This document shows, in pieces, positions 9,501 through 56,736 of a stretch of DNA of 64,000 bases. The stretch covers positions 2,032-66,031 of the forward strand of contig JBAYUN010000004.1 of the NCBI GenBank assembly GCA_041675085.1, given 5' to 3'. Position 1 is the stretch's first letter. Each line of letters opens with the position of its first letter. This DNA comes from Minisyncoccota bacterium (GTDB lineage: Bacteria > Patescibacteriota > Minisyncoccia > Phycocordibacterales > UBA9973). Under the pieces are notes generated by a model. The model worked only from the letters and a program-made list of their open reading frames with translations, made no database searches and had not been told where the DNA came from. The position numbers and the translations under genes are program-made.

Positions 9501-10477
9501 TTGGTATCTAGTCCAGTCGACTGCGCCCGACCACCCTCATAAAATACAAACAAATTTGACCTATTTATAATATAGTTCAAAACTGAATTTCCCGAATTGT
9601 CCCTAATCACAAGATCCACATAACCATCAAAATATACAGGGTCCTCCTCTGCACCCAAAACTTTCAAAACTCCTTCCACAAAGAAAATACTAGAATTAAA
9701 TTCTACCACTACTCCAGGCTCGATAACCAAAGTCGCTCCCGAGGCAAGAGTGATATCTTCGTTGACTACATACGGACTACCCTCTTTTGTCCAAGTTGTA
9801 TCTGTAGTAATATCGTCTAAGATTACTGTCCCAGTACCACTATCAGGAGAATCATCTTCACTATCTGATAAAATATAATTCACCGAAAGAGAAATAAAAT
9901 CATGCCCCGTAGTTGTACCGCTTGCCGTCGGAGTCGCGCGATATGCTGAAAATCTAACTTTAGTATTATTTATAAGACTCGCAGTATTCAAGACAGAACT
10001 AGCATCCAAGACATCAACATGATCAACGCTAGAAATACCCACAGTAGATCCAGATATCTCGACAAAACCAACTCCATCCCAAACTTCTATCTTCGATCCT
10101 GCCAAAGCACTCGAACGCTGAAATTCATGATTTATTTTTACTTCATTTATCACCGCATTTGCTGGAACATTTGGCGAAAAAATAAATTCGATGTACCTGT
10201 CGGCAACATACGTATTTTCATCTGGCCATTTATCGCTACGCATTCTATCTACTCCATTACCCGGCTCAGAATCAGAAAAACTTAATTTTTCAATATCACC
10301 TTCTGAAAAAATCTCGGCAACACCAGAACTTTGATCCACACCAGAAGTCACATAATAGACCCCCATATTTTCTGCAATAACTACAGAAATAAAAAAACTG
10401 TTCAACAGAACAGCCATAAGAACAAAAACAAAAAAGTTTTTAAAAATAGAAACCCTGGTTTTTCCTACCAGCGACAT
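6506..10477 (-). CDS. Giant (1323 aa) surface protein: signal peptide, parallel beta-helix repeats, alpha/beta-hydrolase (lipase-like, nucleophile elbow AHSTGG) domain, C-terminal TM anchor
   Basis: An N-terminal hydrophobic segment is followed by repeated N/D/G-rich beta-helix-like units. VTLIAHSTGGLVIKAL is a GxSxG nucleophile elbow, and the terminal FYVIIFIVLLSSFLIKRFIKI is a membrane anchor. Confidence 0.75.
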   Translation of the reverse strand: MSLVGKTRVSIFKNFFVFVLMAVLLNSFFISVVIAENMGVYYVTSGVDQSSGVAEIFSEGDIEKLSFSDSEPGNGVDRMRSDKWPDENTYVADRYIEFIFSPNVPANAVINEVKINHEFQRSSALAGSKIEVWDGVGFVEISGSTVGISSVDHVDVLDASSVLNTASLINNTKVRFSAYRATPTASGTTTGHDFISLSVNYILSDSEDDSPDSGTGTVILDDITTDTTWTKEGSPYVVNEDITLASGATLVIEPGVVVEFNSSIFFVEGVLKVLGAEEDPVYFDGYVDLVIRDNSGNSVLNYIINRSNLFVFYEGGRAQSTGLDTNNDILFFETNSEFADLKATSLYLYDSSMVEINDSLFSGEAKIEVQDYSNLILKNSKVESLNQDSIVNIYNNASASFTNVDILSLDQSNSGISVFGNSNLNFKDGSLSGSRGGFLVYNDSHLNMLNSEISCDNTGISVYNNSAVDFNTGSVNCGVYGMSLFNNVQANFKKVKVFGAMDSGFIVFNNFGDSFVKITDSEITDNLYGFVVYDSVFSANKSNIHNNILSGAFTFRDVDLDFNNNYWGDATGPYHVDLNPNGLGDSVSEHILFEPWLPSWPPVEECVKNCNSNVMFFPGVQGSRMYGEVFDCSSVTPRDPMFCGEQQLWVSPHKVLQEFMFLDEFGKSKNNVYTKNDTESVEGDGGELGVIDEALTVNIYKSFIADLRNLKNTELSLIEDYALIPYDWRLSLEDIIINGKVIGENLSYLNSGDFSESFIVSELRELQRTSRTGKVTLIAHSTGGLVIKALVQKLKDTNDPLYNQIEKIIFIAVPQVGTPEATIAMLHGVPLGPFGILMPSERSREFGENMPTIYNLAPSSGYFNTVDTDQNPILSFQDHPLLENLISKYGSSINTKEELKDFVLGGDGRAKPSVSDTDKPNIVNEYLYSQAELTHGVIDNWQPSPNTKIIEVAGWGEETKVGLKYVIKRKLLGLGREYVSHKPIVSVDGDSTVAFPSALWMENRENVEEWVINLPLFNSLPGPRRDHKNILEIQNLIQFIQAQITDKVFTDNEGIVLKNDNLNFVASNARLHFTLHSPLTLGIFDKEGRYTGLDPVTKEIKQEIPNVNYDMIGTVQFISAPAGIPYTLQLDGYEEGSFTLDVERQEGNNIIQENYFEMIPSSDKTLAYLYIGEDFEVSKAELKVDSDGDGTIDTIYPKVATPEPITPPSSHGVVILINKDNEAKKELVSKTENITPSIGIVLGVESEIPSQSEDIKIQKEEKVLIENKSEGAVQIEAEEIADDSPKESVDVLKEKNTNKNTSFYVIIFIVLLSSFLIKRFIKI

Positions 10478-10520: not shown

Positions 10521-10553
10521 CTGTGGATAACTATCCAAGGGCATCCCTTGGAT
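10521..10553 (+). repeat. REP element copy A (ctgtggataactatccaagggcatcccttggat); overlaps the 3' end / stop region of the RAYT gene
   Basis: Nested palindromes tggata-ac-tatcca and atccaaggg-cat-cccttggat. The element contains TGTGGATAA, the reverse complement of the DnaA-box consensus TTATCCACA. Confidence 0.85.
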
Positions 10554-11193
10554 GATTTAACCATTCGTCTATTTCTTTTAGAAAATCTTGCTTTGAAGTA
10601 AAATATTCTGGAAAAGCTTTTATGTTTAGAATCAACACTTCCCTTCTAGGTACTTCTAAAAAATCTAAATAGCTCGAGTTGCTGTAACTGTACAAATAAT
10701 CTTTAGTTTTAGATAAATCATTTATACCTTGCTCCTTCCAAGTTGGGTCAAAAATCTTTACAGGATTGAGGTGAATATACATAAAAATATATTTTAAATA
10801 TTCATCAGAATCTAAATGCTCGGCTCGGAACCTACCTTCAAACAATTTACCCGTCCTGTCGTACTTCTTGTTGAAATACATAGAATACGCAGTCGATAAT
10901 TTCTCCATAAAAATACTAATACCGTTTTCTTGTTTTTCTTTTAGCAATAAATGAAAATGATTTGGCATCAAACAATAACTGCCAATATCGACAAGAGTTT
11001 CGCCTCGTTCTATCTTGTCCAAGGGCACCCCTTGGATAGTTTTAAAGACAACTGGTTTCGAGCCATTGCATACAAATAAAAGCTTTATAAACCTCTTGTA
11101 GTCAAAATCATCCAAAAATATCAAGGATTTATTGTTTCCCCTATTGTAAACATGATAGTATTCGTTAATTGAAAAATTTATCTTTCTTTCCAT
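10531..11193 (-). CDS. tnpA_REP: REP-associated tyrosine transposase (RAYT, IS200/IS605-type Y1 HUH transposase)
   Basis: HUH motif (YCLMPNHFHLLL), the HVYNRGNN motif and conserved Tyr residues downstream. A degenerate REP lies inside the ORF (11027-11050). Confidence 0.8.
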   Translation of the reverse strand: MERKINFSINEYYHVYNRGNNKSLIFLDDFDYKRFIKLLFVCNGSKPVVFKTIQGVPLDKIERGETLVDIGSYCLMPNHFHLLLKEKQENGISIFMEKLSTAYSMYFNKKYDRTGKLFEGRFRAEHLDSDEYLKYIFMYIHLNPVKIFDPTWKEQGINDLSKTKDYLYSYSNSSYLDFLEVPRREVLILNIKAFPEYFTSKQDFLKEIDEWLNHPRDALG

Positions 11194-13713: not shown

Positions 13714-13956
13714 TTATTCAGTGTAAAAAATATTGTTTATCTCTTCAAGAGTTAGGAATGGTTTCAAAGCTCTGATTATAGCTTTCTGTGTTCCCCTATC
13801 TAATTCGTCATGATTTGGTATTGAGATATTTTGAGTTTCGTTTATATTAACACGACTTAATCTTATATGACTTCCTTTTTGCCTAACAACAACAAAACCA
13901 AGCGCTTCTAATTCTTTAATAATTTCTTTACCTGAAAGTCTTTTAAGATTAGGCAT
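13714..13956 (-). CDS. hicA: HicA-family mRNA-interferase toxin
   Basis: GSHIRL.. and IPNHDELDRGTQKAIIRAL match the HicA/YcfA fold signature. The gene overlaps hicB by 8 nt. Confidence 0.7.
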   Translation of the reverse strand: MPNLKRLSGKEIIKELEALGFVVVRQKGSHIRLSRVNINETQNISIPNHDELDRGTQKAIIRALKPFLTLEEINNIFYTE

Positions 13957-14170
13957 ATATCATATCTGCTAAATCAAAATTAATCATAACAGGATGAGAA
14001 ATATTATCCTTTTGATCAACTTCTTCGAAATACAAATCTGTAGCTTCTTTTATATTACTTACAAGCTCCTCAAAGGTTTTACCTTGAGTTACTATCGCAT
14101 AGTCATTTGCAGAGCCGACATAATAGCCGTCTTCTCCTTTTTCTATTTTAAATAATACTATTTTTGACAT
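13949..14170 (-). CDS. hicB: HicB-family antitoxin (short, UPF0150 domain only)
   Basis: YYVGSANDYAIVTQGKTFEELVSNIKEA motif, lying upstream of and overlapping hicA. Confidence 0.6.
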   Translation of the reverse strand: MSKIVLFKIEKGEDGYYVGSANDYAIVTQGKTFEELVSNIKEATDLYFEEVDQKDNISHPVMINFDLADMIYA

Positions 14171-14236
14171 ATTTATATTATATCACAAAATGTTAGAAAA
14201 GATAGGTTTTATTTTATAAAGGGTCTAAAAAAGGAG

Positions 14237-14269
14237 CTGTGGATAACTATCCAAGGGCATCCCTTGGAT
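14237..14269 (+). repeat. REP copy F
   Basis: Identical 33-mer. Confidence 0.85.
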
Positions 14270-14280
14270 GTGGCAAATAC

Positions 14281-14604
14281 TTATTTTTGTTTTTTCTTTT
14301 CTAATAAGTACACACGAGAAGCTAGTTCGTCAAACATACGATGAGTAACAAATTTATCACCTAGATCCAACATATCTCTACGAGTTGCTTTAACATTTTC
14401 GTCTATTTGTTTTACTTTTTCATCTAAAGCATCAAACTTAGAATCTATGCCATCGAATTTAGCATCTATAGCATCAAATTTAGAATCTATACGTTCAAAT
14501 CCCTTAGCAGTCATAATAGCTAAGTTGTTTACAGTTTCTGAAAGATTGTTAACAGTACCTGCTAAATCTTCGATAGTCATTTTCTTTTTTACGACTTTCT
14601 TCAT
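14281..14604 (-). CDS. Small coiled-coil protein with 8-aa tandem repeats (SKFDAIDAKFDGIDSKFDALD)
   Basis: 107-aa ORF with about 24-bp periodicity in the DNA at roughly 14425-14500. Confidence 0.6.
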   Translation of the reverse strand: MKKVVKKKMTIEDLAGTVNNLSETVNNLAIMTAKGFERIDSKFDAIDAKFDGIDSKFDALDEKVKQIDENVKATRRDMLDLGDKFVTHRMFDELASRVYLLEKKKQK

Positions 14605-14610
14605 TCTTTA

Positions 14611-14640
14611 ATTATATCACACAAGAATTTTGTGATGCAA
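14611..14640 (-). promoter_or_regulatory. Sigma70-like promoter TTGCAT-N18-TATAAT only 6 nt upstream of the ATG, which predicts a leaderless transcript
   Basis: The minus-strand read is ttgcatcacaaaattcttgtgtgatataattaaagaATG. The sequence is identical at 16459-16488. Confidence 0.5.
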
Positions 14641-14925
14641 TCTGTATTTATAAAGGGTCTAAAAAAGGAGCTGTGGATAACTATCCAAGGGCATCCCTTG
14701 GATTGGGAGTTTTGGATTTTGGGAAGGTCGGACCTTCCCAGATTTTGGTTTCTTGGTCTTGGGTAGGTCTGACCTCCCCTTTTTAAAATACAAATTGGAA
14801 CGCAAAAAGCCCTCGCTTTCGCGAGGGCTTTTTGCTGCTTTTTACGGCATCCCCTAAAAGTTTTCTTCTTTATTATTTCTTATTTATAAGATTGCATTAT
14901 TCTTTTAGTTGAGTCAAACTTACAA
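14611..14925 (-). repeat. Composite intergenic cassette, unit 1: promoter + REP copy G (14670-14702) + gggaaggtc hairpins + conserved terminator (14803-14843) + AT-rich tail
   Basis: Long stretches are shared with the units at 15735-15955 and 16456-16732. Confidence 0.7.
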
Positions 14926-15025
14926 ATTATTTTAAAGTTATCCACAATTATTTGCTTTTATTTTTAAAAAAATATATAATATAAGTGTTATTCAAAAAAG
15001 CCACCTGCAAAGGGGGCTTTTTTAT

Positions 15026-15649
15026 TTATATGGATACTACTGGTATTTCTTTCTTTATATTTTCTTTAATATCCAAAAGAGACATATAAAATACTTTATC
15101 TTTCTTTTCACTAACCAAAGCTCGTAGTTTAGTTGAATACACAGCAACAGTAAGCCCAGACTTGATGTCTCGACCAGCATAAGAAACTATTGTAACTTTT
15201 GTAACTCCTTTTTCAAGAGCCTTTCTTATAACATATTCAAAATCTCCATCCCCTGTAAAAATCAACAACTCAACGTCAGGAGCAGATTTATCAATAACAT
15301 CAACCGCCAGTTCCACATCACAATTAGCTTTCTTGCGATATCCCATATTTATAATTTGAATATTATCTTTCAAGCACCCAGAACATTTAAAAGCTATAAT
15401 TTTATCTTTATTTTTGTAAGAAAAAATTGATTTACTTTTAACGATACAACAAGGAGTTTTATTTAATAGATCAAATTCTTTTGCTGTTTCTATATCACCA
15501 TTATCGATACCTGTATAAAAAAGAACCTCAGAACAAGATTTTTTATTTTTTAAAAAGTCAGCTACTTTCATCCAGTCAACAACAAAGTCTAACATTTTTT
15601 CAGTTGTACTTGCTGTATTTTGAACATCCACAAAAGCATATCTTTTCAT
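15026..15649 (-). CDS. NYN-domain (LabA-like) putative RNase; the ORF extends to 15697 but the likely start is MKRYAFVDVQN
   Basis: The acidic residues FVDVQN.., DVELAVDVID and LIFTGDGDFEYVI are typical of PF01936. Confidence 0.65.
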   Translation of the reverse strand: MKRYAFVDVQNTASTTEKMLDFVVDWMKVADFLKNKKSCSEVLFYTGIDNGDIETAKEFDLLNKTPCCIVKSKSIFSYKNKDKIIAFKCSGCLKDNIQIINMGYRKKANCDVELAVDVIDKSAPDVELLIFTGDGDFEYVIRKALEKGVTKVTIVSYAGRDIKSGLTVAVYSTKLRALVSEKKDKVFYMSLLDIKENIKKEIPVVSI

Positions 15650-16732: not shown

Positions 16733-19700
16733 CTATGATTGTACAGTTTGAGAAATTGGAAGATTTTTAACTCCGTATTCTCCTGTCCAGTCATTAGTTG
16801 TTGTTGAGTGTCCTGAAGCTGAAACGTCAGACCAAATGATTGTTACATCAGAGTCAGCAGTTTCTACATCAGCTGCACTATCTGAAGCTGCGTAAGCAGC
16901 ATCACCAGCAAGCTTTGTAACTACGTAGTCAACATCAATGTCAACAGAAGCAGCAGTCATACGTAATTCGTATGTCTTTGTTCCTGAAACTTGTTGTACA
17001 GCTGTAGCATCGAACTCTATAGTTCCTGAAGTGTTTGTAGCACCTACAGTTGTAAGAGTATCAGTACCAGCAACTTCTGCGTTAGCAGTAACATCCCATA
17101 GTACAGCGTTAGTTAATACTGGGTCAGCAGTCTTTGAAACTTCAAAGAACAATCTTGACCATTCAATAGTACCACCGTTTGAAGTGATAGTGAATCTTGA
17201 AAGCACGTTTTCACCTGCTTTTAATTTATCACCACTCAAAGCAACAGCTGTAATAGTTGGAGTTGCAGCGTAAGCATACATTGCATTTCCAGCTGGACCA
17301 TTTTCTAATGCTTCACAAGTTGAGTTTCCACAACCTGCATCGTTAGCTGAAGCATCTGAAGTACCAGTTGAAGTATTTGTAGCTGTGAAAGTTGATAGAG
17401 TTACAAGTTGTGAAGAACCTGTATCACCTGCACCAATTCCAACAGAACCTAATACTAATTTAACAGTCAACACTTTGTTTTGGTTAGCTGGAACATTCCA
17501 GTTAAGACCATTGAAAGTAACTGGACTAGCACCTGGTTTTGAAGCAATCAAAGTAGCACCGTCGTAAAGTTCTACACTTTGTGCCACAGTAGTATTACCT
17601 AATGTGAAAGTAAGATCTGTTACGTTGTATCCAGCAGTAATTGCAGCGAATTTGAATGCAGCAGCAGTAACTGTTTGATTGTCATGGACAATCGCAGCAA
17701 CTGGAGTTGAAGCATCTGTAGTAGCTGTAATTGAAGCTGTACCTGCTGTAATTGTTTGACCAGTTGTAACAGCTGGGGCAACCGCAGTTCCTGAAACACT
17801 AGCTGTACCTGTCAAAGTTAAGTCTATGTCAAAGTCAGTACCTACTGTTGCAGCAGAACCAAGATTTGCATAAAGCTCAATTGACATATTTGTATTCTTA
17901 ACCAATGTGTGATTGATTGAGAAAGCATTTCCTGTAGCACTAACTGTAGCTAAAGGAGAAGGTTGTGAAACAATGTTTCCTGCTGCATCTTTAACAACAA
18001 TATACATGTTTGTTAAATCATCAGCAATATCAAAGTCGTCAGCAGAACCTCCTTCATCAAATGAAACTGTTGTTAAAAGAACATCTTCTACTGAAGAACC
18101 TGCAACGTTCCAAGAACCGATTTTGAAACCAGTAGCTGGAAGAGAAACAGATTGGTTAGCATAAGTTGCGTTCTTTGTAAGACTAACAGTTGCTGAAGCA
18201 ACAGTTAATGTATTACCATTAACAGCTGTACCAGGAGCATTGAATGATCCTAGAGAATCAACTTTTTGAGCGTTTGATGAACCAATAGCGATAACACCAA
18301 TTATAGTATCACCAGCTGTAAGGTCGTTTGTACCGTCATTGTCAAACATATCTGCATGTAAGTCCATAAGTACTGGTGTACCTGGGTTTACAGTGTAATT
18401 CAATGTGTATTGTGTATAAGCAGGTGTTGAAGAGTCTTCCATCAAAGTTGATGTAGAACCGTATTGAACACCACCTATAACGATACGTCCATTTCTTAAT
18501 GAATCTACAGCGTTATCAGAAGTTGTGAATGAAGCACGGATATTTTCGATCTTGATAGGTTCACCGTAAGCTGTAACTTTGTAAGTAGCGATTTTAACAT
18601 CGTTACCAGCTAAAGTTGCGTTTGTTGAAGAAGATGAAACATCTTTTTCAATGATTAATGAACCTCCACCTTGACCTGAAATTGTACTTTCAGTAGCAGG
18701 AGCCCATGGTAATGGATCAGTTGTTACACCACCTACAACACCAGGAACAATGTTAACTCCGAAAGATGAATCTACGAAATCAACATCAGCTGCACTTCTC
18801 AAAGAGAAATGAACTGTTCTTGAAGCACCAGATACGATATCAGCATCAACACGTACTACACGTGTTCCTGATTGTAGCATTACTGGAGTTGAAGTCATGT
18901 CAAAAGTAACATAACCGTTAACATCTACACCAGCAGCTGTCGCAACTTGAACTCCATTTACATAAAGTTTAAAGCCACCGAAAGCATTAGCTGGAGCTGA
19001 TCCAACATTTCTGAAAGCTACTCTTTTCATCCAAACATCTCTTTGTGAGATATTTAAACTTGATTGCCACACTGTTACGTTTGCACCTGGGTTAAGAGTT
19101 GCATTTGTAGGTGTTTCTATTCCAGAAGTAACGCCAGCTAATGTAGCATTAGCTATTGAATGAATGTTACCTGAAAGGTTAACAGTTGAAGTTGTGCCTC
19201 CAGCTGTAACTGTTGCAAGCATCATACCTACAGTTTGACCTGAAGTATTAGCAGCAATGTCAGACTTTACAGAAATAGTTTTTGTACCGTTAACTGTGAA
19301 GATTCCTGAAGGAACGTTGAATGTAACTGTACCGTTGTTTGAAACTGAAGCTGCATCTGTCAAACGTGTAGCACCGTCAAATAGGTAAACGTTTGAAGGA
19401 GTAGCGTCAGCTGAAACTCCGATTCTTTGTAAAGTAACAGCAGTAACTGTGCCTGATCCACTGAAAGTGAAGTTAGCTAAGTTAGCTGTAGCTTGTCCTG
19501 CAACAAGAGTAGATGAAGCTGGATTGTTTGAAGACAATGCAACTGTAACTGGTCCTGTTTGTGAAGTTGAACCTGAACATGGTTGTCCAGTTGTAGAACT
19601 GAATCCTGATGTTGATGAACAACCTGCTGGAAGAGTTGTACTAACTCCTGTAGAACAAGATACTCCTGTGATAGGAGAGAATCCTGCTGATGATGTACAT

Positions 19701-20046
19701 CCTGCTGGATAGTTACCTCCTGTTGAAGTTGTACCTGTCCATGAAGCTCTTGAAGCTGGTCCAAAGATACCGTCTGCTGTTAATCCCTTACTAGCTTGGT
19801 AAGCTTGTACGGCTGTTTTGGTTTTAGAACCGAAGTAGTTTGTTTCACTACCTACTGATCCTGCACCTGAAGTTGAAACAACGAATCCTTTTGAGTTAAG
19901 ACCTTGTTGAAGTTCTTTAACTTGACTGTTGTTTGAACCTAGTTTTAGTGTTGAAGTGATAGCAGCTGAAGCTGTTCCTGTTGAAAGGATAACTGCAGCA
20001 GCAACCATCAAACCTAAAACGAATTTTGATTTGAATAAATTACTCA
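16733..20046 (-). CDS. Giant Ser/Thr/Ala/Gly-rich secreted surface protein with an N-terminal PG_binding_1 domain (S-layer- or adhesin-like); the ORF reaches 20113 but the likely start is MSNLFKSKF at 20046
   Basis: A signal peptide and LKLGSNNSQVKELQQGLNSKGF..FG..T..AV..YQ..KGLTADG are followed by about 1000 aa of low-complexity beta-rich sequence. Confidence 0.7.
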
Positions 20047-20640
20047 TATTTTTTTTAATTACGCCATTAATAAGTTTCGACAAAACTAAAAGCGTATTTT
20101 CTATCGTCCTCATCCCTACTTAATTAATAAATAATAATAATGCGTAGTGACTTGCGAGGACAAAAAGATTTGAACTAAACTTGAAAACATAACTAAAGAC
20201 ATTTGCAATTGTGATGCAAACATTTTTATTGTATTAAGTTTTCAATGACCTTTCTTTTACCGAATCTTTGCAATAAATTTATTTTACTAAACTTAAAACA
20301 AAGACAGGCTTTGATCCTTTGTGTACTAAATCTTTTCGACGAAATTTAGCAACAAGATCTTATACTATATATAAGTATGAGAATAAGACTTTCGTAAAAT
20401 TCTTCACACTAATAATATATACGTATACATTATAATATAGACTCTCGAATAAGAGCAATATTACAACGTGTGGATAACCGATAATTTCGCATAAGAAAAA
20501 TAAATTCTTCGCTAGTTACTCCACCTATCTATATTGGCATATTTTTGACATAAAAGCAAACACAAATTAGGTTCTAGTCGCTAGGTTCTAGGTTCTAGGA
20601 AAATGCAAAAATGCAAAAAACAAAGAAAGGTTATTAGAGA

Positions 20641-28091: not shown

Positions 28092-29474
28092 TCATCTTTG
28101 TGTTTTATACTTTCTGGGGCGTTCTTGGGTAATCAAATATCTTATTATAGCTATCCATGGACCAAAGGAATCAGTAAAAACTAAGAATATTGTTGAGTAA
28201 GAAACTTTAAACATGGATAGACTTTTTAATTTATTAGCATAAACTCCAAGTTTCTGTTTTTCCAAAATGCTTGGTAAATTTTTTAGCAAATAAAGTACTG
28301 GTAAAACCTGAAAAATAAAAAGCCCCACAACCCCAAGCACTATAACTATTATATTTTGATAAAAAAACCCAAAAATTATCGGGAAAAGATATAAAAATGA
28401 AGACACGAGCCAATACGAACCTCTTCCAATGCCTACAATCAAAAGTTTTAATTTTCGAGTCATTGATACATCTTGAACTTTTTTATCAAAAAAACACGAA
28501 AAATATTCAAGATAATTCCAAAACCAAACATTTCTTTGTTTGATATAGGAAGTAAAATCAAAAGGCACGTCTGCTACTTCTAAAACATCCAAATTTATAA
28601 TTGGAACTTTTTTAGCTGACAAAAAATATCCCAAAGTAAGGTCTTCTGTTAGTAAATTTTCTGGATAACCACCATTATTCAATAAAGTAGAGAATTTCAT
28701 TGAGGAACCATGACCAACAGAATAACCGAGCTGACTATTAAACAGTTCTTTCATGAACGGGATTTTTTGCTCTGCAATACTAGAAGTACTTATTTCATAA
28801 TTTTTAAGAATACGATTTTCGTGACCCAAGCAAAACCAGGTTTGATACAAAGAAAGTGCATTTACAAAATTATTCTTACCTATATCTTTAATAAATACAC
28901 AGGGTTGTTGTATTGCAAAATTATCCTCAGCAGAATGCTTTTTTAAATATTCTGTAAAATAATTTAAGGTTAAACTAGAAGGACGCGAATCAGCATTATA
29001 CAAAATATACGCCTCTTCTTTGTTTTTTATATCTAAACCCACTATTTCGTTAACAGCAAAATTTAACTGGGTTGCCATGTTTGAATTTTTATTCTCTTCA
29101 TTGAGTAATTTAATTCGGTCAGTATTATTATCCCACAAACGATTTTCTATGTCTTTTTTTATAAAATTAAACGTAGAATGCTCACCAATTTCTCTACTAG
29201 ATGTAATAATCACAATAAAAACATAAGGAGTGTTGAAATTTTCTAAAAAATAAGAAATAGTTTCTCTGTAAATTTTCTGTTCATTTAAAAGTGGAAGTAA
29301 AATAAAGATTTTTCTGGAACCATTTTCTTTAGCAGAAAAGAAATTATCATCTTTATTTTTTAATTTCTTTAAAAAAGTAATTAAATGTATGAAGTCTGGA
29401 ATACCTCTAATAGCTTGTAAAAATAAACAAATAAATGCTAATATAAATATATTCATATGAAATACAATAATCAT
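28092..29474 (-). CDS. Membrane glycosyltransferase family 2 (processive, cellulose/chitin-synthase-like)
   Basis: NADSRP, TEDLTLGY and QRNVW (QxxRW-like) motifs, with C-terminal TM helices. Confidence 0.55.
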   Translation of the reverse strand: MIIVFHMNIFILAFICLFLQAIRGIPDFIHLITFLKKLKNKDDNFFSAKENGSRKIFILLPLLNEQKIYRETISYFLENFNTPYVFIVIITSSREIGEHSTFNFIKKDIENRLWDNNTDRIKLLNEENKNSNMATQLNFAVNEIVGLDIKNKEEAYILYNADSRPSSLTLNYFTEYLKKHSAEDNFAIQQPCVFIKDIGKNNFVNALSLYQTWFCLGHENRILKNYEISTSSIAEQKIPFMKELFNSQLGYSVGHGSSMKFSTLLNNGGYPENLLTEDLTLGYFLSAKKVPIINLDVLEVADVPFDFTSYIKQRNVWFWNYLEYFSCFFDKKVQDVSMTRKLKLLIVGIGRGSYWLVSSFLYLFPIIFGFFYQNIIVIVLGVVGLFIFQVLPVLYLLKNLPSILEKQKLGVYANKLKSLSMFKVSYSTIFLVFTDSFGPWIAIIRYLITQERPRKYKTQR

Positions 29475-30443
29475 ATCATTTTAGAAGGACTTTGGGGAGT
29501 AGGAAAAACTAGAGTACTAAAAGAATTAGCAAAAAGTGGTTTTACTATTATTAAAGAACCAATCTATTATAATAAATACAAAAATAATGATAAAGATCGT
29601 TCTTTATGGTATGCAAAAAAGCACAAAGACAGAGAAAAATTAATTTTAAGTGAACTAAACCCTATCGCACTAGAAAGATCAGAGCTTTCCAATTTTGCTT
29701 ATCAATACGCAACAAAAAATAAACTACCAAGCAAGAAAGATTTATCTTTCTTGTCAAAAGTTGTAAGTTTAAAAAAAGTTTTATTAGTATATCTTTCTAT
29801 TAATAAAAACAACTCAATCATTAAAACAAATGACTTAATGCATGGAAAAGAAATAAAAAAAATAACTGAAAACAAAAAACGAATTAACTTATACGAACAT
29901 TGGTATAAATCAATATTACCTGAAAAATTTAATTTAACGTTATTGGAAATAGACCTAATTAACAGTGCGAGGAAAACACCCAATACCATATCAAACGAAA
30001 TACTGAAATGTTTAAAAAGCAATAGAGTTGCTCAAGTAAACATAGTAGTTTGTAGATATAATAATTCAAATGAATTAGAAGTTTTAGTATTGAAAAGAGC
30101 AAAAGACAGAGGTGATTTTTGGCAAACTATCACAGGAGGAATCCACATCGGAGAAAGTTTTTTACATGCTGGGAAAAGAGAACTTAAAGAAGAACTTTCT
30201 ATTGAAGTTAACAAAGTTTCATATGCAGATTTTTCATACTCCTTTACAGGCAATGAAGGCTATAAATTGAATGAATACGCTTGTTTTGTTTTATTAAATT
30301 ATAAAAAATCATTAAATATAAAAATAAGTGATGAGCACGTAGAATACAAATGGCTAGATCCAAAAAGTGCTATGAGTCTTTTAAAATTTAAAGAGAACAA
30401 AAGTGCCATAAAACATTCAATCAAAAAAATAGCACCCCGTTAA
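29457..30443 (+). CDS. Deoxynucleoside kinase - NUDIX hydrolase fusion protein
   Basis: N-terminal P-loop GLWGVGKT plus the dNK ERS motif (IALERSEL); C-terminal Nudix box GGIHIGESFLHAGKRELKEELSI. Confidence 0.65.
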   Translation: MKYNNHIILEGLWGVGKTRVLKELAKSGFTIIKEPIYYNKYKNNDKDRSLWYAKKHKDREKLILSELNPIALERSELSNFAYQYATKNKLPSKKDLSFLSKVVSLKKVLLVYLSINKNNSIIKTNDLMHGKEIKKITENKKRINLYEHWYKSILPEKFNLTLLEIDLINSARKTPNTISNEILKCLKSNRVAQVNIVVCRYNNSNELEVLVLKRAKDRGDFWQTITGGIHIGESFLHAGKRELKEELSIEVNKVSYADFSYSFTGNEGYKLNEYACFVLLNYKKSLNIKISDEHVEYKWLDPKSAMSLLKFKENKSAIKHSIKKIAPR

Positions 30444-31048
30444 TAACAGGGTGCTTGTATTATAGCCTCAACTTCTTTTTTGATAAGATCATGTATCTCA
30501 TCAACAGAACAAGTGGCATCTAAAATATGCCACCCTCTATCATTAGCAATTTGCAAATAAGTAGATTGAATTAATTCAAAATAATCATCAGACCTGTTTT
30601 CAAATCTCTCAAAATGCCCTCGCAGCCTCCTTCTTTCACGTGCTATTCCAGGAGAAAGTTTTAAAACAAATCCTAAATCTGGAATCAATTGATTGAAAGC
30701 TAACTGATTGAGCTTAATGCGCAAATTTTCATCATTAGATAATTCACCGAAATTTGAGTGATAAGCTAGATAACTTTCATCCCATCGATCAGCCAAAACT
30801 ATCTTGCCATTTTTTAAAGCGTGAATTGTATCTGAATGTTGCTGTGCATGTAAAGCTTGAAAAAGAAACATGATAGCCATATCATTCGTCCAATTATTCA
30901 TGTAACCACGCAAAATAATTTTTGCTTCGTGGTCATAAGCTTTAGTTATTTTAACTAAATGTTTGTTTCTGGTAAGCCAACCCGACAACATGTCAATCTG
31001 TGTCGATTTGCCACACCCATCAATTCCTGTAATTACAATAAGTTTCAT
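30440..31048 (-). CDS. tmk: Thymidylate kinase (dTMP kinase) family
   Basis: ITGIDGCGKSTQ P-loop and the LADRWDESYLAY (DR[YW]..S..AY) motif. Confidence 0.65.
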   Translation of the reverse strand: MKLIVITGIDGCGKSTQIDMLSGWLTRNKHLVKITKAYDHEAKIILRGYMNNWTNDMAIMFLFQALHAQQHSDTIHALKNGKIVLADRWDESYLAYHSNFGELSNDENLRIKLNQLAFNQLIPDLGFVLKLSPGIARERRRLRGHFERFENRSDDYFELIQSTYLQIANDRGWHILDATCSVDEIHDLIKKEVEAIIQAPCY

Positions 31049-31049
31049 T

Positions 31050-31505
31050 TTAACCTCCTTTTTTTAGATTTAGAAATTGGTTTGGTACGCACAATAATTT
31101 TTCTAAGTCATCCCATAATTGTTTTTTCAATCTTTCTGGGAAAAGTTCAAGAGACGATAATTCTGTTTTAAAGAACCATCGACTTTCTGCAACTATTCCT
31201 CCATTATCTAAATGAACTTTAGGTAAGACTGAACCATTTTTTGGATAAGCCAGCCAAAACATCTCAAGGTAAACCTCAGTCGAATTTGGTGAAAACTCCT
31301 GTAAATAGAGGAATCTATCCAAAGTTGCTTCTAAACCAGTTTCCTCTAAAATTTCTCTTGTGATACAATCAGATAGACTTTCTCCTGATTCTAATCCTCC
31401 TCCAGGAGGATACCAGAAATTTGCATTTTTATTTCTGACCAACAAAATACTTTCTTGTTGCTTGTCTAAAACAACTGCTCTACAAATAACACGCCTTTTT
31501 TTCAT
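31050..31505 (-). CDS. NUDIX hydrolase
   Basis: Nudix box PGGGLESGESLSDCITREILEETG. Confidence 0.8.
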   Translation of the reverse strand: MKKRRVICRAVVLDKQQESILLVRNKNANFWYPPGGGLESGESLSDCITREILEETGLEATLDRFLYLQEFSPNSTEVYLEMFWLAYPKNGSVLPKVHLDNGGIVAESRWFFKTELSSLELFPERLKKQLWDDLEKLLCVPNQFLNLKKGG

Positions 31506-31607: not shown

Positions 31608-32546
31608 TCGCGTAATGGTTCAATAGCTTGGCACCACTCAAAGGAATACCATTGAGATATGCCATATACAACAAACAAAAATATGCCAAGAATTAGAAGA
31701 GAAGCTGCGGACTTAGTTCGTAGAGGTTGGAGTGCAAGAAAAGTAGGTAGAAGATTGGGGTTCCACCATACTGCAATCATGGAATGGGTAAGAAAATCTA
31801 AAATTATGGGATATGGGAATATACCAACAAAAAGTTCTCGTCCGTATTCACATCCTAAACAATTAAAGGAAGAAGTAATCATTAAAATCGTAAAGAAAAG
31901 ATTAGAGCATGGAAGGTGTGCTGAAGCTGTACATAAACAACTTCAAAACGATGGACTAAAAGTTTCTTTGTCTTCTGTAAAGAGAACTTTGGAAAGAAAA
32001 TATTTAATCAAGAAACGAAGTCCATGGAAACGATATCATCCACCTGTAGAACGTCCATATCCCCTTAAAAGTGGTGATTTAGTAGAGATTGATACTATTC
32101 ACAGAATGATAGACAAGAAGAAACGTTTGTATGTATTTGTATTGATAGATGTGTATTCTAGATGGATATATGCTAAAGCATATGAAAGAATGGGTGCAAA
32201 GGTTGGAGTGCGTTTTGTCAAAGAAGCACAGAGACATGCACAGTTTAATTTTAATATGTTACAAAGTGATCATGGACCAGAGTTTTCTAATTGGTTCGTA
32301 TCACGTATTGAAAAGAAACATAGATATACAAGAATTGGTAAACCTAATGACAATGCTCATATTGAAAGAGTTAACAGAACTATTCAAGAAGAATGTTTAG
32401 GTAAATTACCTAATGATGTTAAACAAATTAATTGCGAACTTAAAAAATATTTGCAATACTACAATTACAAAAGAGTACATGCAGGAATTAATTATTTAAC
32501 TCCTATGCAAGTGGTGTGAAGCTATTGGTTAGAATACGTACTCGAA
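31608..32546 (+). mobile_element. IS481-family-like insertion sequence (single DDE transposase ORF; candidate imperfect terminal inverted repeats (TIRs) at 31625-31642 and 32510-32527)
   Basis: CAATAGCTTGGCACCACT matches the reverse complement of agtggtgtgaagctattg at 16 of 18 positions; it encloses the transposase gene. Confidence 0.55.
31659..32519 (+). CDS. DDE (rve/integrase-core) transposase, IS481/IS3 superfamily
   Basis: An N-terminal HTH; ..DTIH..LIDVYSRW.. and the QSDHGPEF..KPNDNAHIERVNRTIQEE integrase-core signature. Confidence 0.8.
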   Translation: MPYTTNKNMPRIRREAADLVRRGWSARKVGRRLGFHHTAIMEWVRKSKIMGYGNIPTKSSRPYSHPKQLKEEVIIKIVKKRLEHGRCAEAVHKQLQNDGLKVSLSSVKRTLERKYLIKKRSPWKRYHPPVERPYPLKSGDLVEIDTIHRMIDKKKRLYVFVLIDVYSRWIYAKAYERMGAKVGVRFVKEAQRHAQFNFNMLQSDHGPEFSNWFVSRIEKKHRYTRIGKPNDNAHIERVNRTIQEECLGKLPNDVKQINCELKKYLQYYNYKRVHAGINYLTPMQVV

Positions 32547-37581: not shown

Positions 37582-38118
37582 TTATTTTATTATCTTTTTT
37601 ACATCTCGATACAAAAAATAATCCTTAGCAAGTGGAATAAAATGTTTTAAATATATTTTCAAATTATCACTTTCTATTTCTGGCAAGTTATCTAAGGAAA
37701 AAATATTGCAATCAAGTGCCTCGTCTACACAAAACTGTTCTAGAGGTTCTTCTGTCTTTACAGCATAAAAAAGAATATAAGCTGGATTTGGATAATCCTC
37801 TCCAGTAGCTTTATTTATTTTAGGAATATCATTCATTATTTCAAGATAACCAACAGGCTCTCTAGAAGATTCAAAATGCCTAATACCAGCTTCTTCAAGT
37901 ATTTCTCTAGCAAGGGTTTCTTTTAAAGATTCACCTATCTCTCTATGACCGCCTGGTAATTCCCAGCCTCTATTGTGATTTTTAATCATCACAAGACCGT
38001 CTGTGTGAAAAGGTATTCCAAAAACAGCCGTGACGTTATCTTCATTTGGTATAGTTCCAGAGGTAAACAATCTCCATTCAGCATTTGCCCATCTACCTTT
38101 TTCTTTAAAGTTTTCCAT
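37582..38118 (-). CDS. NUDIX hydrolase
   Basis: Nudix box ELPGGHREIGESLKETLAREILEEAG. Confidence 0.8.
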   Translation of the reverse strand: MENFKEKGRWANAEWRLFTSGTIPNEDNVTAVFGIPFHTDGLVMIKNHNRGWELPGGHREIGESLKETLAREILEEAGIRHFESSREPVGYLEIMNDIPKINKATGEDYPNPAYILFYAVKTEEPLEQFCVDEALDCNIFSLDNLPEIESDNLKIYLKHFIPLAKDYFLYRDVKKIIK

Positions 38119-38123
38119 AATTT

Positions 38124-38630
38124 TTAAAATTTAAGATTATTCATCTTGCTAGACAATTTCTCTAATTTTTTAAAATCAGCTTTTGGTCCATCATTAGAAG
38201 ATATATAGCCTTCATATTTTTTAAAATAATCAGAATTATCACTTAAATACTGCTTCCAAATACCCTTTTTCATATGTGCGGTACCATGCATCGGTGTTAG
38301 TTTTATGTGGGCATGATCAATACCTGTCCCTTCCATAATTAAACCAACTCTACCAACATCTTTAAATACTTCAATAAGTTTCTTTGAAATTTTTTTAGAA
38401 ATTAACAAAAACTGACTTAATTCTTTATCAGGCATTTGCAGAACATCTGAACCATAATGCTTTTTCGGTATCACTACAGTAAACCCTTCGGTATTAGGAA
38501 AAGGAGACAACCAAGCCATGTATTTCTTATCTTCATAAATTTTACTATTACCCAAAGGTAACATTTTCCCAGATGCTATTTCACAAAAGATACACTTTCC
38601 TTCTTTGGTTTTTGAATCATATTTTGGCAT
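38124..38630 (-). CDS. HIT-family (histidine triad-like) protein
   Basis: CIFCEI near the N-terminus and a DHAHIKL His cluster. Confidence 0.5.
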   Translation of the reverse strand: MPKYDSKTKEGKCIFCEIASGKMLPLGNSKIYEDKKYMAWLSPFPNTEGFTVVIPKKHYGSDVLQMPDKELSQFLLISKKISKKLIEVFKDVGRVGLIMEGTGIDHAHIKLTPMHGTAHMKKGIWKQYLSDNSDYFKKYEGYISSNDGPKADFKKLEKLSSKMNNLKF

Positions 38631-41018: not shown

Positions 41019-41117
41019 ATATTTAATTGTTTTATTATGAAATTAAAAAACTTGTCTAATTTAATAGAAACATAATTTTTATAAAATGTCAATAATAAAA
41101 GATTCAGTTAACGATTG

Positions 41118-41191
41118 TCCGTCCTCATGGATTCGAACCATGGACCCCAGAGGTATAAGCTCTGTGCTCTAACCAACTGAGCTAAGGACGG
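41118..41191 (-). tRNA. tRNA with anticodon UAU (reads AUA), i.e. tRNA-Ile(UAU)
   Basis: Manual cloverleaf: acceptor CCGTCCT/AGGACGG, D-arm GCTC-AGTTGGTTA-GAGC, anticodon stem CAGAG/CTCTG with loop CTTATAC, T-arm CATGG-TTCGAAT-CCATG, discriminator A. Confidence 0.65.
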
Positions 41192-41245: not shown

Positions 41246-43141
41246 TTAAGCAACTTCTAATTCTTTCTTCTTTGGCATGATACCAAACACAGCGATAACT
41301 TTCTCATATTCTTCTTGCTCTAAAGTCTCTACTTCTATCAATTTATCTGCTATAGCTTTTAGAGCTTTTTGATTTTCTCTCAAAACTTCTTCTGCTTTTG
41401 CTAAAGCTCCGTGAATAATCTTTGAGACTTCGCTATCTATGACAGTTGAGACAGTTTCGGAATAAGGAGAATTATCTTTACCTTCACGTCCTCCAGCATA
41501 CGCCACAGGTCCCAATGCATCTGACATACCCCAGCGTGTAACCATAGCTTCGGCCATAGATTTAGCTCCTTGTAAGTCTGAAGAAGGACCAGTAGTCAAA
41601 TCTCCGAAGATCATTTTCTCAGCGACGTATCCGCCGAGAGACATAGCAATATCGTCTAAGAATTCTTTGCGGGATTGGAGTTTGCGGTCTTCGAGAGGAA
41701 GCTTTAAAGTATAACCTCCTGCAGAACCACGAGCAATAATAGAGACTTTGTGCACAGGGTCAGCATTCGGTAATACAGAAGCGACTAGGGCATGACCTGC
41801 TTCATGATAAGCAGTAATTTCTTTTTCTTTCTTAGAAAGTAAATGACTCTTTCTCTCAGGTCCAAGCATGACTTTTTCTATCGCACGGATAAGGTCGAAT
41901 TGAGAAACTTTTTTCCTATTTTCACGTGCTGCTAGTATCGCGCCTTCGTTCATAACAGAATGCAAATCCGCTCCTGAGAATCCAGGAGTACGTTCGGCAA
42001 TAGTTTTAAAATTAATATCTTCAGCTAAAGGTTTCTTCAATGAGTGAATTTTCAATATTTCTTCGCGGTCATTGCGGTCTGGTAGATCTAGCATAACTTT
42101 ACGATCAAAACGGCCTGGGCGGACTAGAGCTGGGTCCAAGACGTCGGGTCTATTAGTAGCAGCCATAACTATGACTTTATCTGTAGGTTCGAATCCGTCC
42201 ATCTCAACAAGGATTTGGTTCAAAGTTTGCTCACGCTCATCGTTACCTCCTCCGTATCCCCCTCCACGCACGCGACCGATAGCATCTATCTCATCTACGA
42301 AAATAATAGCCGGTGCTGCACGTTTTGCCATCTTGAAAAGATCACGTACACGAGAAGCTCCAACTCCGACGAACATTTCTACGAATTCAGACCCAGAAAG
42401 GTGAAAAAAAGGTACTCCCGCCTCTCCGGCGACTGCACGAGCGAGCATGGTCTTACCTGTACCTGGAGCTCCATTTAGCATAACTCCTTTGGGAATACGA
42501 GCTCCAATATCTAAGAATTTCTTTGGGCTTTTTAGGAAATCTACGATTTCTTTCAATTCTTCTTTCGCTTCTTTGGCTCCAGCTACGTCTTTGAAAGTCA
42601 CTCTGTTGTTCTTGTCATTTGGATCAGTGATGCGGGCTTTGGATTGACCGAAAGTAAAAGCTTGCATACCTTGACCTTTGACCTGACGAGATAGGTACCA
42701 GAAGAAAAATACAATAAATAGTATCGGCAATAAGAAAGGTAAAATATTGAGAAGTACGACTAAAGCTCCGCTAGGATTTTTAATCGCTATTTCTACAATA
42801 GATAGAGACTCTTTGTCTACGCCATAGTTATATAAAGTTTGAGACAAACTGGACTCAACTTCTTTTTTAGATTCTTTGGTAGTCTCGTCGTTATAAACTA
42901 TTTGAAGCTTCTCGCCTTCTACTGTTATCTTCTTTACCTCACCTAGAGAGACATCACTCGCAAGTTGTGAGATCGGTATCTCGACTACTGGAGTACCTGA
43001 TTTATCAAGTATCAAATACAATGCTGTCAGAAGCATAAATATTAAAATAGTAGTGACGATACTACCTGAGAGACTGCTCCCCTCTTTTTTGTCTTTGTTG
43101 TTATTATTGTCGTCTTTTTTATTTAAAAATTTAAAATCCAT
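41246..43141 (-). CDS. ftsH: ATP-dependent zinc metalloprotease FtsH
   Basis: GAPGTGKT Walker A, second region of homology (SRH), and the HEAGHA zinc site. Confidence 0.95.
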
Positions 43142-51092: not shown

Positions 51093-51569
51093 TTAATCTT
51101 TGTGCTCAGCGTAGATAAAATCAGTGTCGATTTTTTTGTATGAGAAGATTTCTTCCTCTCCAAAAAATCTTTTTACTTCTATTTCTCCAGTCTCCACAGA
51201 ATCAGATGCGTGTACGATATTTGATTGAGTAGAAAGTGAATAATCTCCTCTGATTGTACCTGCATTCGCTTCCCAAGCTTTTGTTGGTCCGACGATAAGT
51301 CTGATAGCTGAGACAGCATTGATACCAGATAAAGCCATAACAACAACAGGACAAACTGTCATAAAGTCACGAGTACCTGGGAAAAAAGGCTTGTCTTTGA
51401 TGTGAGCATAGTGCTCTTCTATTAAAGCGTCTTTGATAGACATCATCTTTAAACCTACTATTTTTAATCCTTTTTTCTCGAAACGAGCTATGATTTCCCC
51501 TACTAGATTGCGTTGCAATGCGTCTGGCTTGATAATAATTAAAGATTTCTCTTCATTTGGTCTTGTCAT
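51093..51569 (-). CDS. ndk: Nucleoside diphosphate kinase
   Basis: IIKPDALQRNLVGEII and NIVHASDS. Confidence 0.9.
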   Translation of the reverse strand: MTRPNEEKSLIIIKPDALQRNLVGEIIARFEKKGLKIVGLKMMSIKDALIEEHYAHIKDKPFFPGTRDFMTVCPVVVMALSGINAVSAIRLIVGPTKAWEANAGTIRGDYSLSTQSNIVHASDSVETGEIEVKRFFGEEEIFSYKKIDTDFIYAEHKD

Positions 51570-54399: not shown

Positions 54400-54430
54400 T
54401 TCTAAATTATAGCAAGAAAAAAACATATTA

Positions 54431-54509
54431 AAAAGCAAAATGTTAAAATTTTCATGGTCTGGTTGAGCAAAGCGACCCGAGGACCTGAAAATTTTAATAT
54501 TTTGCTTTT
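54431..54509. promoter_or_regulatory. Imperfect 28-bp inverted repeat with a 22-nt loop, about 35-110 nt upstream of the probable start of the ATPase gene
   Basis: aaaagcaaaatgttaaaattttcatggtc .. gacctgaaaattttaatattttgctttt. Confidence 0.4.
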
Positions 54510-55397: not shown

Positions 55398-56081
55398 TTA
55401 CGAAATCGTAGTACCTTTGAATTCTTCCCCATCTAAGCATTTAGCTAGATTCTCTATCGGGTTACCATTTAGTATAAAAACAGAGATACCCTCAGCTTCA
55501 GCCATTTTTGAAGCCACAGGATCAAACGGACTAGACAGTCCAGGATTCCATTCAGCTGGTATCAGACTTCTATATTCGCTCCAAGAAATTTTCTCAAATT
55601 TTTTAGCGTCAGGATTCATGCGAGGATCCGAATCATAAACATAATCAATATTGGAAAGATTGATAACTTTTGTAGCGCCGATATTCTTGGCACCCAATAC
55701 TGCACCATAGTCTGTGCTCTGTCCTGGTTTATATGCTGAAGCTACTAAGACTGGTTTCTCAAAATGAAAGTCTAGTGACAAATCTGGGATAACATTATGA
55801 TTTGCATAATCTCCAAACATAACTCTGACTAATTCTGCGTTCAAACGTAGCGCAGCGATACCAATCCAATCCAAATCATCATTCACAGGAGTAGATAAAG
55901 CTTTAGCGCCGTCTTGATATTTGCGACAGATCTTCCCTCCTCCAGTAATTATAAGAAACTTTCTACCTTTATTTACGTGAGATATTATTAATTCTTTAAA
56001 GCTTTTCAGAAATTCAATATCTAGCTCATTCGGAACTATGAGCGATCCACCCAATGAAATTACAAAAGTTTCTTTTTCCAT
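55398..56081 (-). CDS. pyrH: UMP kinase, archaeal-type (amino-acid-kinase family)
   Basis: VISLGGSLIVP.., ITGGGKICRKY and the C-terminal GTTIS resemble archaeal PyrH rather than bacterial PyrH. Confidence 0.65.
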   Translation of the reverse strand: MEKETFVISLGGSLIVPNELDIEFLKSFKELIISHVNKGRKFLIITGGGKICRKYQDGAKALSTPVNDDLDWIGIAALRLNAELVRVMFGDYANHNVIPDLSLDFHFEKPVLVASAYKPGQSTDYGAVLGAKNIGATKVINLSNIDYVYDSDPRMNPDAKKFEKISWSEYRSLIPAEWNPGLSSPFDPVASKMAEAEGISVFILNGNPIENLAKCLDGEEFKGTTIS

Positions 56082-56673: not shown

Positions 56674-56736
56674 ATGATATAGATAATACAAGATTTAGCT
56701 TGAAAAATCAACATTTTTAGAATAGAATGGATTTAT

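Follow-up and report, generated by a model that had tools for sequence, protein, structure and literature searches.

A single open reading frame (ORF) at positions 29457..30443 of a 64,000-nucleotide stretch of contig JBAYUN010000004.1 from a Minisyncoccota bacterium (hereafter the window) encodes a genuine bifunctional-type protein with two domains, in which an N-terminal P-loop kinase is joined to a C-terminal Nudix hydrolase. Judged by its sequence motifs, the kinase domain is a distinct family of its own within the fold group that includes deoxynucleoside kinases (dNKs), thymidylate kinases (TMPKs or TMKs), and ribosylnicotinamide kinases (RNKs). Its members have repeatedly become joined to Nudix domains of two clades and to glycosyltransferases (GTs). 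The reading that we favor, tentatively and at slightly less than an even chance, is that the protein would combine a salvage kinase with a nucleoside triphosphate (NTP) pyrophosphatase and would thereby control a nucleotide pool tied to glycosylation of the envelope.

A first-pass annotation, made from the sequence alone, had described this ORF as a true fusion and had raised the concern that it might be a frameshift artifact of two genes. Nineteen homologues recovered in a first homology search are nearly all 320-350 amino acids (aa) long and contain both domains, and the motif N-R-V-A-Q-V-N at the domain junction is conserved in their alignment. AlphaFold2 applied to this alignment yields a confident model with a compact, two-domain structure (pLDDT 92.7, pTM 0.90). 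Because full-length copies of the fusion recur across dozens of sequence clusters (at least 58 fused representatives) and the model is confident, the fusion does not represent a frameshift artifact. Such recurrence far exceeds what chance would produce. The identical architecture in independent assemblies and sources likewise rules out an assembly error that joined two genes, and a related locus in which the domains are encoded by two adjacent genes (L032) reveals how the unfused version looks. No evidence supporting an artifact was found, and this explanation, which we regard as refuted, retains virtually no probability. A database protein with 100% identity to the fusion, from a 529-kb contig of a Candidatus Paceibacterota metagenome-assembled genome (MAG), is labeled only as "NUDIX domain-containing protein." Current pipelines annotate the protein either in this way or as "dATP pyrophosphohydrolase," leaving the kinase family unnamed.

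Conservation within the kinase family was assessed with 149 domains, taken as representatives at 50% clustering, and all percentages given here refer to this set. The family hallmarks are EG-x-W-x-x-GK[ST], Glu34-Pro35, Trp51-Tyr52, His56, and (E/D)-Arg74-Ser75, in the numbering of the window protein. The Walker A signature G-x-W-x-x-GK[ST] is present across family representatives, with conservation of W13 (91%), K17 (99%), and T/S18 (99%). The candidate general base E34 (97%) and the adjoining P35 (88%) are similarly retained, as are E/D73 (99%), R74 (99%), and S75 (87%). The other near-invariant positions are E10, G11, G16, W51, Y52 (94%), H56 (77%), S78, and A81. Three of these elements, the Walker A loop GxxxxGK[ST], the glutamate of the "EP" motif, and the "ERS" motif, are those expected of dNKs, and they align with the corresponding segments of Giardia deoxyadenosine kinase (dAK) and NDUFA10. 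In dNKs, the glutamate of the EP motif serves as the general base for the 5′-OH, and the arginine of the ERS motif contacts it. The third-position Walker A site is occupied by a small hydrophobic residue in dNKs and by Asp or Glu in TMPKs, and in the E. coli and human TMPKs this P-loop carboxylate binds the 3′-OH. The TMK encoded in the window itself lacks the EP motif. Taken together, the motifs suggest that the Trp-P-loop kinase is probably catalytic and that it probably acts on a nucleoside 5′-OH. Since the domain differs from both dNKs and TMPKs in its lid region, its Walker A tryptophan, and His56, we treat it as a family apart within the dNK/TMPK lineage.

The first-pass annotation had characterized the fusion as a dNK-type P-loop combined with a complete Nudix box. 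The GLWGVGKT loop, the ERS motif, and the Nudix domain are indeed present, but family thresholds do not place the protein among the dNKs, the lid typical of those enzymes is missing, and the last glycine of the Nudix box is a serine. A domain search, which the same annotation had put forward as a check, recovers the Nudix domain but not a named kinase. A relationship between the N-terminal domain and dNKs is apparent only through family profiles, and not for the single protein at curated thresholds. The dNK profile (PF01712, gathering threshold 27 bits) matches 9 of the 19 homologues weakly (best E value 1.7e-5) and gives no match to the fusion protein itself at E≤0.01.

Several observations weigh against assigning kinase activity to this domain. 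A Pfam scan of the N-terminal half detects only AAA_33 and AAA_18, both under their cutoffs, the thymidylate kinase model TIGR00041 scores 21.6 bits against a cutoff of 83.25, and the fusion protein stays below threshold with every curated kinase model. The Arg-rich lid (RxxxRxR), a catalytic element of dNKs and TMPKs alike that contacts the transferred phosphate, is absent from the family, with no position in aa 115-141 exceeding 50% Lys/Arg. The best profile match of the domain is NDUFA10, a non-catalytic relative of dNKs, and a few family members (P0009, P0014-16, P0039, and P0057) have lost the P-loop. Single-sequence searches of the PDB with the N-terminal domain were uninformative, as were those with the GT partners of families 2 (GT2) and 4 (GT4) described below. 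The match to NDUFA10 and the missing lid could be explained if the domain were a non-catalytic module resembling NDUFA10, which would bind a nucleotide, either to sense it or to retain it, and would regulate the attached Nudix or GT; some members without a P-loop do retain a Nudix domain. However, conservation of the Walker A Lys and Thr, E34, and R74 at 97-99% is difficult to explain without catalysis, and the P-loop-less forms are not only few but have also lost the GT and TMK context. We therefore consider a purely regulatory module quite improbable.

The assignment of the C-terminal domain to the Nudix superfamily is clear, with PF00293 matching aa 194-313 at an E value of 3.8e-15 (56.5 bits versus a cutoff of 21.1). 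All catalytic residues of the REx2EE motif are kept, and the 19-sequence alignment shows no variation at R241, E242, E245, or E246. E. coli NudB departs from the consensus at the same terminal position of the Nudix box at which the fusion carries serine in place of the canonical glycine. NudB is also the best match among NCBIfam models (NF006961), although its score of 68.2 bits remains under the equivalog cutoff of 103. In a PDB search, the closest relatives are Listeria 3son (2.5e-19) and E. coli NudB (5.9e-14, 30% identity), followed by Ap4A and Ap6A hydrolases, and Foldseek is in agreement. A different Nudix clade (LPQGH...REx2EE), whose best PDB relatives are Ap4A hydrolases, is present in 19 of the 58 kinase-Nudix fusions. 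By sequence, both fused clades fall within the part of the superfamily whose members split nucleoside tri- and tetraphosphates to give nucleoside monophosphates (NMPs), and a "sanitizing" role resembling that of MutT is not indicated. The MutT 8-oxo-dGTPase model TIGR00586 gives 21.9 bits versus a cutoff of 97.9, such that the nucleotide pool sanitation proposed in the first-pass annotation is a guess for this domain.

An exhaustive profile search with the N-terminal domain recovered 535 representatives at 50% clustering, of which 130 have E values ≤1e-10. Among the 150 representatives listed of these 535, there are at least 58 kinase-Nudix fusions, at least about 80 stand-alone kinases of ~190 aa, and at least two longer fusions. 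The two direct GT fusions are single polypeptides that combine GT4 with the kinase (P0046) or an epimerase, GT4, and the kinase (P0045). Thus, the kinase occurs alone, fused to either of the two Nudix clades, or fused to GT4 with or without the epimerase.

To define the surroundings of these genes, neighbors were mapped in 31 loci (L numbers) by gene calling together with local hidden Markov model and jackhmmer searches. Among 28 kinase genes with a visible upstream neighbor, which fall into 14 informative lineages when grouped at 60% identity of the kinase, a GT is fused to the kinase in 5 cases, adjacent in 20, and within three genes in the remaining 3. The five kinase genes without a GT are each the first ORF at a contig end. 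Three more lineages (L034-36), which include a GC-rich lineage and a distant stand-alone kinase, retain the gene set, with GT2 adjacent to the kinase in L034 and L035 and three genes away in L036. In all 17 lineages with visible neighbors, therefore, the kinase is fused to, adjoins, or lies no more than three genes from a GT2 or GT4. This association is the strongest contextual signal in our data, and it was missed by the first-pass annotation.

The shared gene set, comprising the kinase, a Nudix, TMK or an NDK-like-Nudix protein, and a GT, has been kept together through many rearrangements. In the arrangement found in the window, GT2(-) is followed by kinase-Nudix(+) and then by TMK(-) and Nudix(-), and GT2 occupies the same position in L001, L003/4, L007/13, L008/14, L011, L034, and L035. 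In a second arrangement, Nudix(-) and TMK(-) precede GT4(+) and kinase-Nudix(+). A third consists of epimerase-GT4-kinase-Nudix operons with overlapping genes, of which L032 contains the unfused version, and the GT4-kinase and epimerase-GT4-kinase polypeptides constitute a fourth. In a fifth, the kinase and TMK genes overlap beside a Nudix-GT2 pair (L036). TMK adjoins in the window, L001-4, L007-9, L013-15, L032, and L034-36, and the related loci likewise preserve a second Nudix gene as a partner. The complete GT2/kinase-Nudix/TMK,Nudix block also occurs on a contig (CAZIBB010000015.1, L008) from a MAG labeled "uncultured Bdellovibrionales," which could reflect either a binning error or a wider distribution. 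The Saccharibacteria sampled do not carry the module. Another recurrent partner is an NDK-like domain, with its catalytic His kept, fused to a NudB-like Nudix. Beside each of the four fusions of this type listed in Table 1 is a conserved protein of ~250 aa with faint MNT/DUF4037 similarity. We considered whether this neighbor might be a sugar nucleotidyltransferase, and rejected the assignment on the basis of the faintness of the similarity and a DxD motif that is mostly degenerate.

These arrangements bear directly on whether the block might function solely in the salvage of DNA precursors, with a deoxynucleoside kinase, a sanitizing Nudix, and a GT neighbor that represents inherited synteny without functional meaning. 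The dNK-like motifs and profile matches fit such a function, as does the linkage to TMK and to a small, MutT-like Nudix, and bacteria of the candidate phyla radiation (CPR) often lack nucleotide biosynthesis (PMC7304191). However, single polypeptides join the kinase covalently to GT4 or to epimerase-GT4, GT2 and GT4 substitute for each other beside the kinase, and in L026 each of two kinase paralogues has its own GT. Because GT2 and GT4 have unrelated folds, their exchange, together with the covalent fusions, cannot be explained by inherited gene order. In addition, the Nudix domain of the fusion is not of the MutT type. We consider it unlikely, though with an appreciable residual probability, that salvage for DNA synthesis is the only function.

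In our preferred reading, the kinase would carry out ATP-dependent phosphorylation of a (deoxy)nucleoside 5′-OH. A pyrimidine, perhaps thymidine, might be the favored substrate, because dTMP kinase is a constant partner and because the kinase and TMK are translationally coupled in L036. TMK, followed by NDK or NDK-like proteins, would take the product to the di- and triphosphate, and the Nudix domains would return the triphosphate, or a polyphosphate by-product, to the monophosphate. Each of the three phosphorylation steps (dNK-like, TMK, and NDK-like) would thereby be paired with a Nudix that runs the chain backwards, and the kinase-Nudix block could set the size and composition of the salvaged nucleotide pool. 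The conserved linkage of tmk and a second Nudix across distant relatives fits a kinase cascade with pyrophosphatase counter-activities of this kind. Since the block is always coupled to a GT, which in the window is the membrane GT2, the pool probably serves NDP-sugar-dependent envelope synthesis. As a nucleotide carrier for envelope glycans, it would probably matter at least as much as it would for DNA precursors. The earlier proposal that the protein both phosphorylates deoxynucleosides and hydrolyzes (d)NDP/NTP derivatives thus retains its core idea by virtue of the conserved cascade partners, but loses the attribution to the dNK family.

Some findings weaken this reading, particularly a version of it based on dTDP-sugars. 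The recurrent epimerase is a GalE/LegB-like short-chain dehydrogenase/reductase (SDR) and not RmlB-like; it resembles an enzyme for UDP-hexoses more than one for dTDP-sugars. No rml or sugar-nucleotidyltransferase genes were detected in the flanks of the examined loci. On these grounds a pathway of the dTDP-rhamnose type is unsupported. We also found no precedent in the literature for a GT with its own kinase/Nudix pair. A reversible GT4 of the SuSy/TreT type, which would make an NDP-sugar from NDP supplied by the kinase, was considered as well and rejected, because the GT4 partner profile instead resembles transferases that use lipid-linked acceptors, namely PglA (8e-9), PimB′, WbnH, and PimA.

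This last resemblance suggests an alternative in which the kinase and Nudix are accessories of the GT and do not act on free nucleosides. With the kinase acting on a hydroxyl and the Nudix trimming a diphosphate, both activities might yield the same monophosphate acceptor or carrier, for example a polyprenyl phosphate or a sugar phosphate, or they might hydrolyze and re-phosphorylate NDP-sugars as regulators of the Gmm/NudD type. The universality of GT association or fusion in the examined loci is consistent with such a function, as is the presence of a TylF-like sugar O-methyltransferase often next to GT2. Among P-loop kinases, LpxK, gluconate kinase, and shikimate kinase are examples whose target hydroxyl does not belong to a nucleoside. 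Arabidopsis NUDX1 (5gp0), a weak sequence match to the Nudix domain of the fusion in the PDB search, hydrolyzes both dihydroneopterin triphosphate and prenyl diphosphates. Arguing against this alternative, nucleosides or nucleotides are the substrates of all the closest sequence and fold relatives of the kinase, its conserved partners TMK and NDK-like also work on nucleotides, and no membrane-binding segment is visible in the kinase sequence. We judge the accessory function to be unlikely. In L031, a 513-aa protein (13916..15457) combining a Nudix, possibly of the isopentenyl diphosphate isomerase type, with a polyprenyl synthase is encoded a few genes from the epimerase-GT4-kinase fusion.

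Two further origins or functions were rejected. Searches of viral contigs revealed no relatives, and this result, together with the integral-membrane nature of GT2 and the placement of the loci among housekeeping genes, argues against a phage or mobile origin and against a DNA-glycosylation pathway resembling that of phage T4. PADLOC returned only weak matches to generic Nudix-like or TMK-like candidate models (PDC-S07, PDC-M51B, and VakA), with no system-specific match that would indicate an anti-phage defense system.

More broadly, the module might represent an undescribed system, widely conserved in Patescibacteria, in which a phosphorylation cascade and its pyrophosphatase "reverse gears" are physically coupled to envelope glycosylation. 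It would then serve either as a nucleotide-carrier recycling unit for nucleotide-auxotrophic cells or as a kinase/Nudix pair whose two activities converge on an acceptor monophosphate other than a nucleotide, polyprenyl phosphate being one example. We regard this proposal as doubtful. Literature searches turned up no account of either the fusion or the module, and what is new here is both a kinase family left unnamed by annotation pipelines and a conserved four-part module of kinase, Nudix, TMK or NDK-like protein, and GT. In the tiny genomes of CPR/Patescibacteria, genes kept across many lineages are likely to matter. If salvage and glycan synthesis are indeed coupled, the module would show how nucleotide-auxotrophic episymbionts split scarce nucleotides between DNA and the cell surface, and it would give experiments a starting point on how CPR bacteria build their envelope. 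If the function is confined to salvage and pool cleaning, it would be a modest addition to known nucleotide metabolism.

The coordinates of the fusion, its motifs, and its neighbors are compiled in Table 1. As the first-pass annotation had noted, tmk and a stand-alone Nudix gene adjoin the fusion, and both identifications are upheld by the profile scores. The fusion and tmk converge, their stop codons overlapping, and tmk is preceded on its own strand by the Nudix gene, with a gap of 1 nucleotide (nt). In the translation of the GT2 gene, which is divergent from the fusion, hydrophobic N- and C-terminal segments are visible. Translation of GT2 probably begins in truth at Met7 (29456), so that no intergenic space would remain before the fusion. 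The two genes are separated by 0-18 nt in the window and by 12-13 nt in L003 and L008. As there is almost no DNA between them, each promoter must lie inside the other gene. Directly beside the module is a transposase of the rve type (IS3/IS481-like; 31659..32519, +), at a place occupied by enolase in the close relatives L001 and L009. An IS200-like Y1 transposase (10531..11193, -) is located further upstream.

Table 1. Positions of the kinase-Nudix fusion, its functional elements, and associated genes (window coordinates, except where a locus number is given)
Feature	Position	Strand	Details
Kinase-Nudix fusion gene	29457..30443	+	Uninterrupted ORF, 328 aa plus stop
N-terminal P-loop kinase domain, "Trp-P-loop" family	29457..30020	+	aa 1-188; TMPK/dNK/RNK fold group
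Walker A loop	29487..29510	+	G11-L-W13-G-V-G16-K17-T18 (GLWGVGKT), aa 11-18
E34-P35, candidate general base	29556..29561	+	dNK-type "EP" motif; aligns with EP of Giardia deoxyadenosine kinase
E73-R74-S75, "ERS" motif	29673..29681	+	Aligns with ERS/DRS of NDUFA10 and dAK
C-terminal Nudix domain	30021..30440	+	aa 189-328; NudB/Ap4A-hydrolase-like
Nudix box of the fusion	30135..30203	+	GGIHIGESFLHAGKRELKEELSI; G227-x5-E233-x7-R241-E242-x2-E245-E246
Integral-membrane GT2, divergent from fusion	28092..29474	-	Pfam Glyco_trans_2_3 7.5e-6, 26.3 bits versus 27
dTMP kinase, tmk	30440..31048	-	TIGR00041 92.8 bits versus 83.25; Pfam Thymidylate_kin 3.4e-23
Stand-alone Nudix hydrolase	31050..31505	-	Pfam NUDIX 7.4e-15; full Nudix box GGLESGESLSDCITREILEETG
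Third Nudix	37582..38118	-	Weakly YtkD/RNA-pyrophosphohydrolase-like
HIT protein	38124..38630	-	HinT-like
ndk	51093..51569		
AA_kinase/pyrH UMP kinase	55398..56081	-	Best PDB matches 2bmu/2ij9/2j4j
adk	56083..56691		
cmk-like	56737..57306		
Shortened NDK-like+NudB-like Nudix fusion, L020	7783..8631		Kpn-loop region reduced
Shortened NDK-like+NudB-like Nudix fusion, L031	10462..11298		Kpn-loop region reduced
Shortened NDK-like+NudB-like Nudix fusion, L033	7619..8455		Kpn-loop region reduced
Shortened NDK-like+NudB-like Nudix fusion, L028	7773..8603		Kpn-loop region reduced

The other nucleotide enzymes that the first-pass annotation had listed (adk, a cmk-like gene, an archaeal-type pyrH, ndk, a third Nudix, and a HIT protein) were all located in the window. 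In a PDB search, the pyrH product matches 2bmu, 2ij9, and 2j4j at 1e-24 to 1e-18 versus ~1e-6 for 3ek5 and 2a1f; the search output gives no organism, and we take the former to be archaeal and the latter to be bacterial UMP kinases. The adk-pyrH-map block stands after secY, and adk beside secY and map is an ordinary synteny. The third Nudix and HIT genes, 5 nt apart on the same strand, probably form an operon. The number of NMP and nucleoside diphosphate (NDP) kinases, given earlier as seven, is six with the fusion included. Among the window ORFs scanned, which did not extend to the long ORFs 6506..10477, 16733..20113, and 41246..43141, no pur or pyr genes for de novo synthesis were detected; gmk or a further P-loop kinase was likewise not found among the ORFs scanned. 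The density of kinases had been interpreted as a sign of nucleoside import. This argument is weak, since adk, cmk, pyrH, tmk, and ndk are required with or without de novo synthesis, and their presence therefore says little about dependence on salvage. It is plausible that CPR bacteria as a group depend on nucleotides taken up from outside (PMC7304191).

Elsewhere in the window, a tRNA-Ile with anticodon TAT was identified by ARAGORN and the Rfam tRNA model (41117..41191, -). Most bacteria decode AUA with a lysidine-modified CAU tRNA, and a UAU tRNA-Ile is thus unusual. A 653-aa protein (1428..3389, -) combines PG_binding_1 repeats with a match to Pfam APP_N (amyloid A4 N-terminal heparin-binding; 7.8e-14), which is unexpected in a bacterium. 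A 932-aa ORF (51640..54438, -) carries the Walker A sequence GQTGTGKT at aa 536 and matches no Pfam family at E≤1e-5, and a 161-aa protein (63119..63604, -) is made of tandem LSTLEQKMATKED-type repeats.

Among characterized proteins, the dNK family (PF01712), which includes Drosophila dNK, human deoxycytidine and deoxyguanosine kinases, the Mycoplasma and Giardia deoxyadenosine kinases, and the inactive NDUFA10, has the same fold as the N-terminal domain and is its best neighbor by both sequence profile and Foldseek. Shared features are the EG preceding Walker A, the Glu-Pro after strand 2, and the (E/D)-R-S after strand 3. In contrast to dNKs, the domain falls under the Pfam threshold, lacks the RxxxRxR lid, has Trp at the third Walker A position, and is fused to a Nudix or GT. 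Within its W51-Y52-x3-H56 helix, His56 appears where dNKs have a base-binding Gln, a correspondence that derives from comparison of the motifs by eye and not from a computed alignment. Relative to TMPKs (PF02223/TIGR00041), which together with dNK-family proteins are its nearest relatives by sequence, the domain has Trp at the position of the P-loop carboxylate, ERS rather than DRY, and no lid arginines. Because a bona fide TMK is always encoded alongside the kinase, the two are not redundant.

The best relatives of the Nudix domain, E. coli NudB (a dihydroneopterin triphosphate/dATP pyrophosphohydrolase) and Listeria 3son, share with it an FWQ-x-x-TG stretch and a Nudix box that ends in a non-Gly residue, at 30% identity over ~139 aligned columns. 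Unlike NudB, the Nudix of the fusion scores below the equivalog cutoff, is joined to a kinase, and has no folate or pterin genes nearby. Fusions in NAD metabolism, NadM-Nudix and NadR (with its RNK domain), differ in that the window protein has no nicotinamide mononucleotide (NMN) adenylyltransferase domain and is partnered with TMK and a GT rather than with NAD genes; matches to AAA_28 are weaker than those to dNKs. The colanic-acid cluster, in which the Nudix gene gmm/nudD (wcaH) is located among genes for SDR epimerase/dehydratase and GT4 proteins, bears a likeness to the module. Gmm, a GDP-mannose mannosyl hydrolase, belongs to another Nudix subfamily, and its cluster contains no kinase, TMK, or NDK partner.

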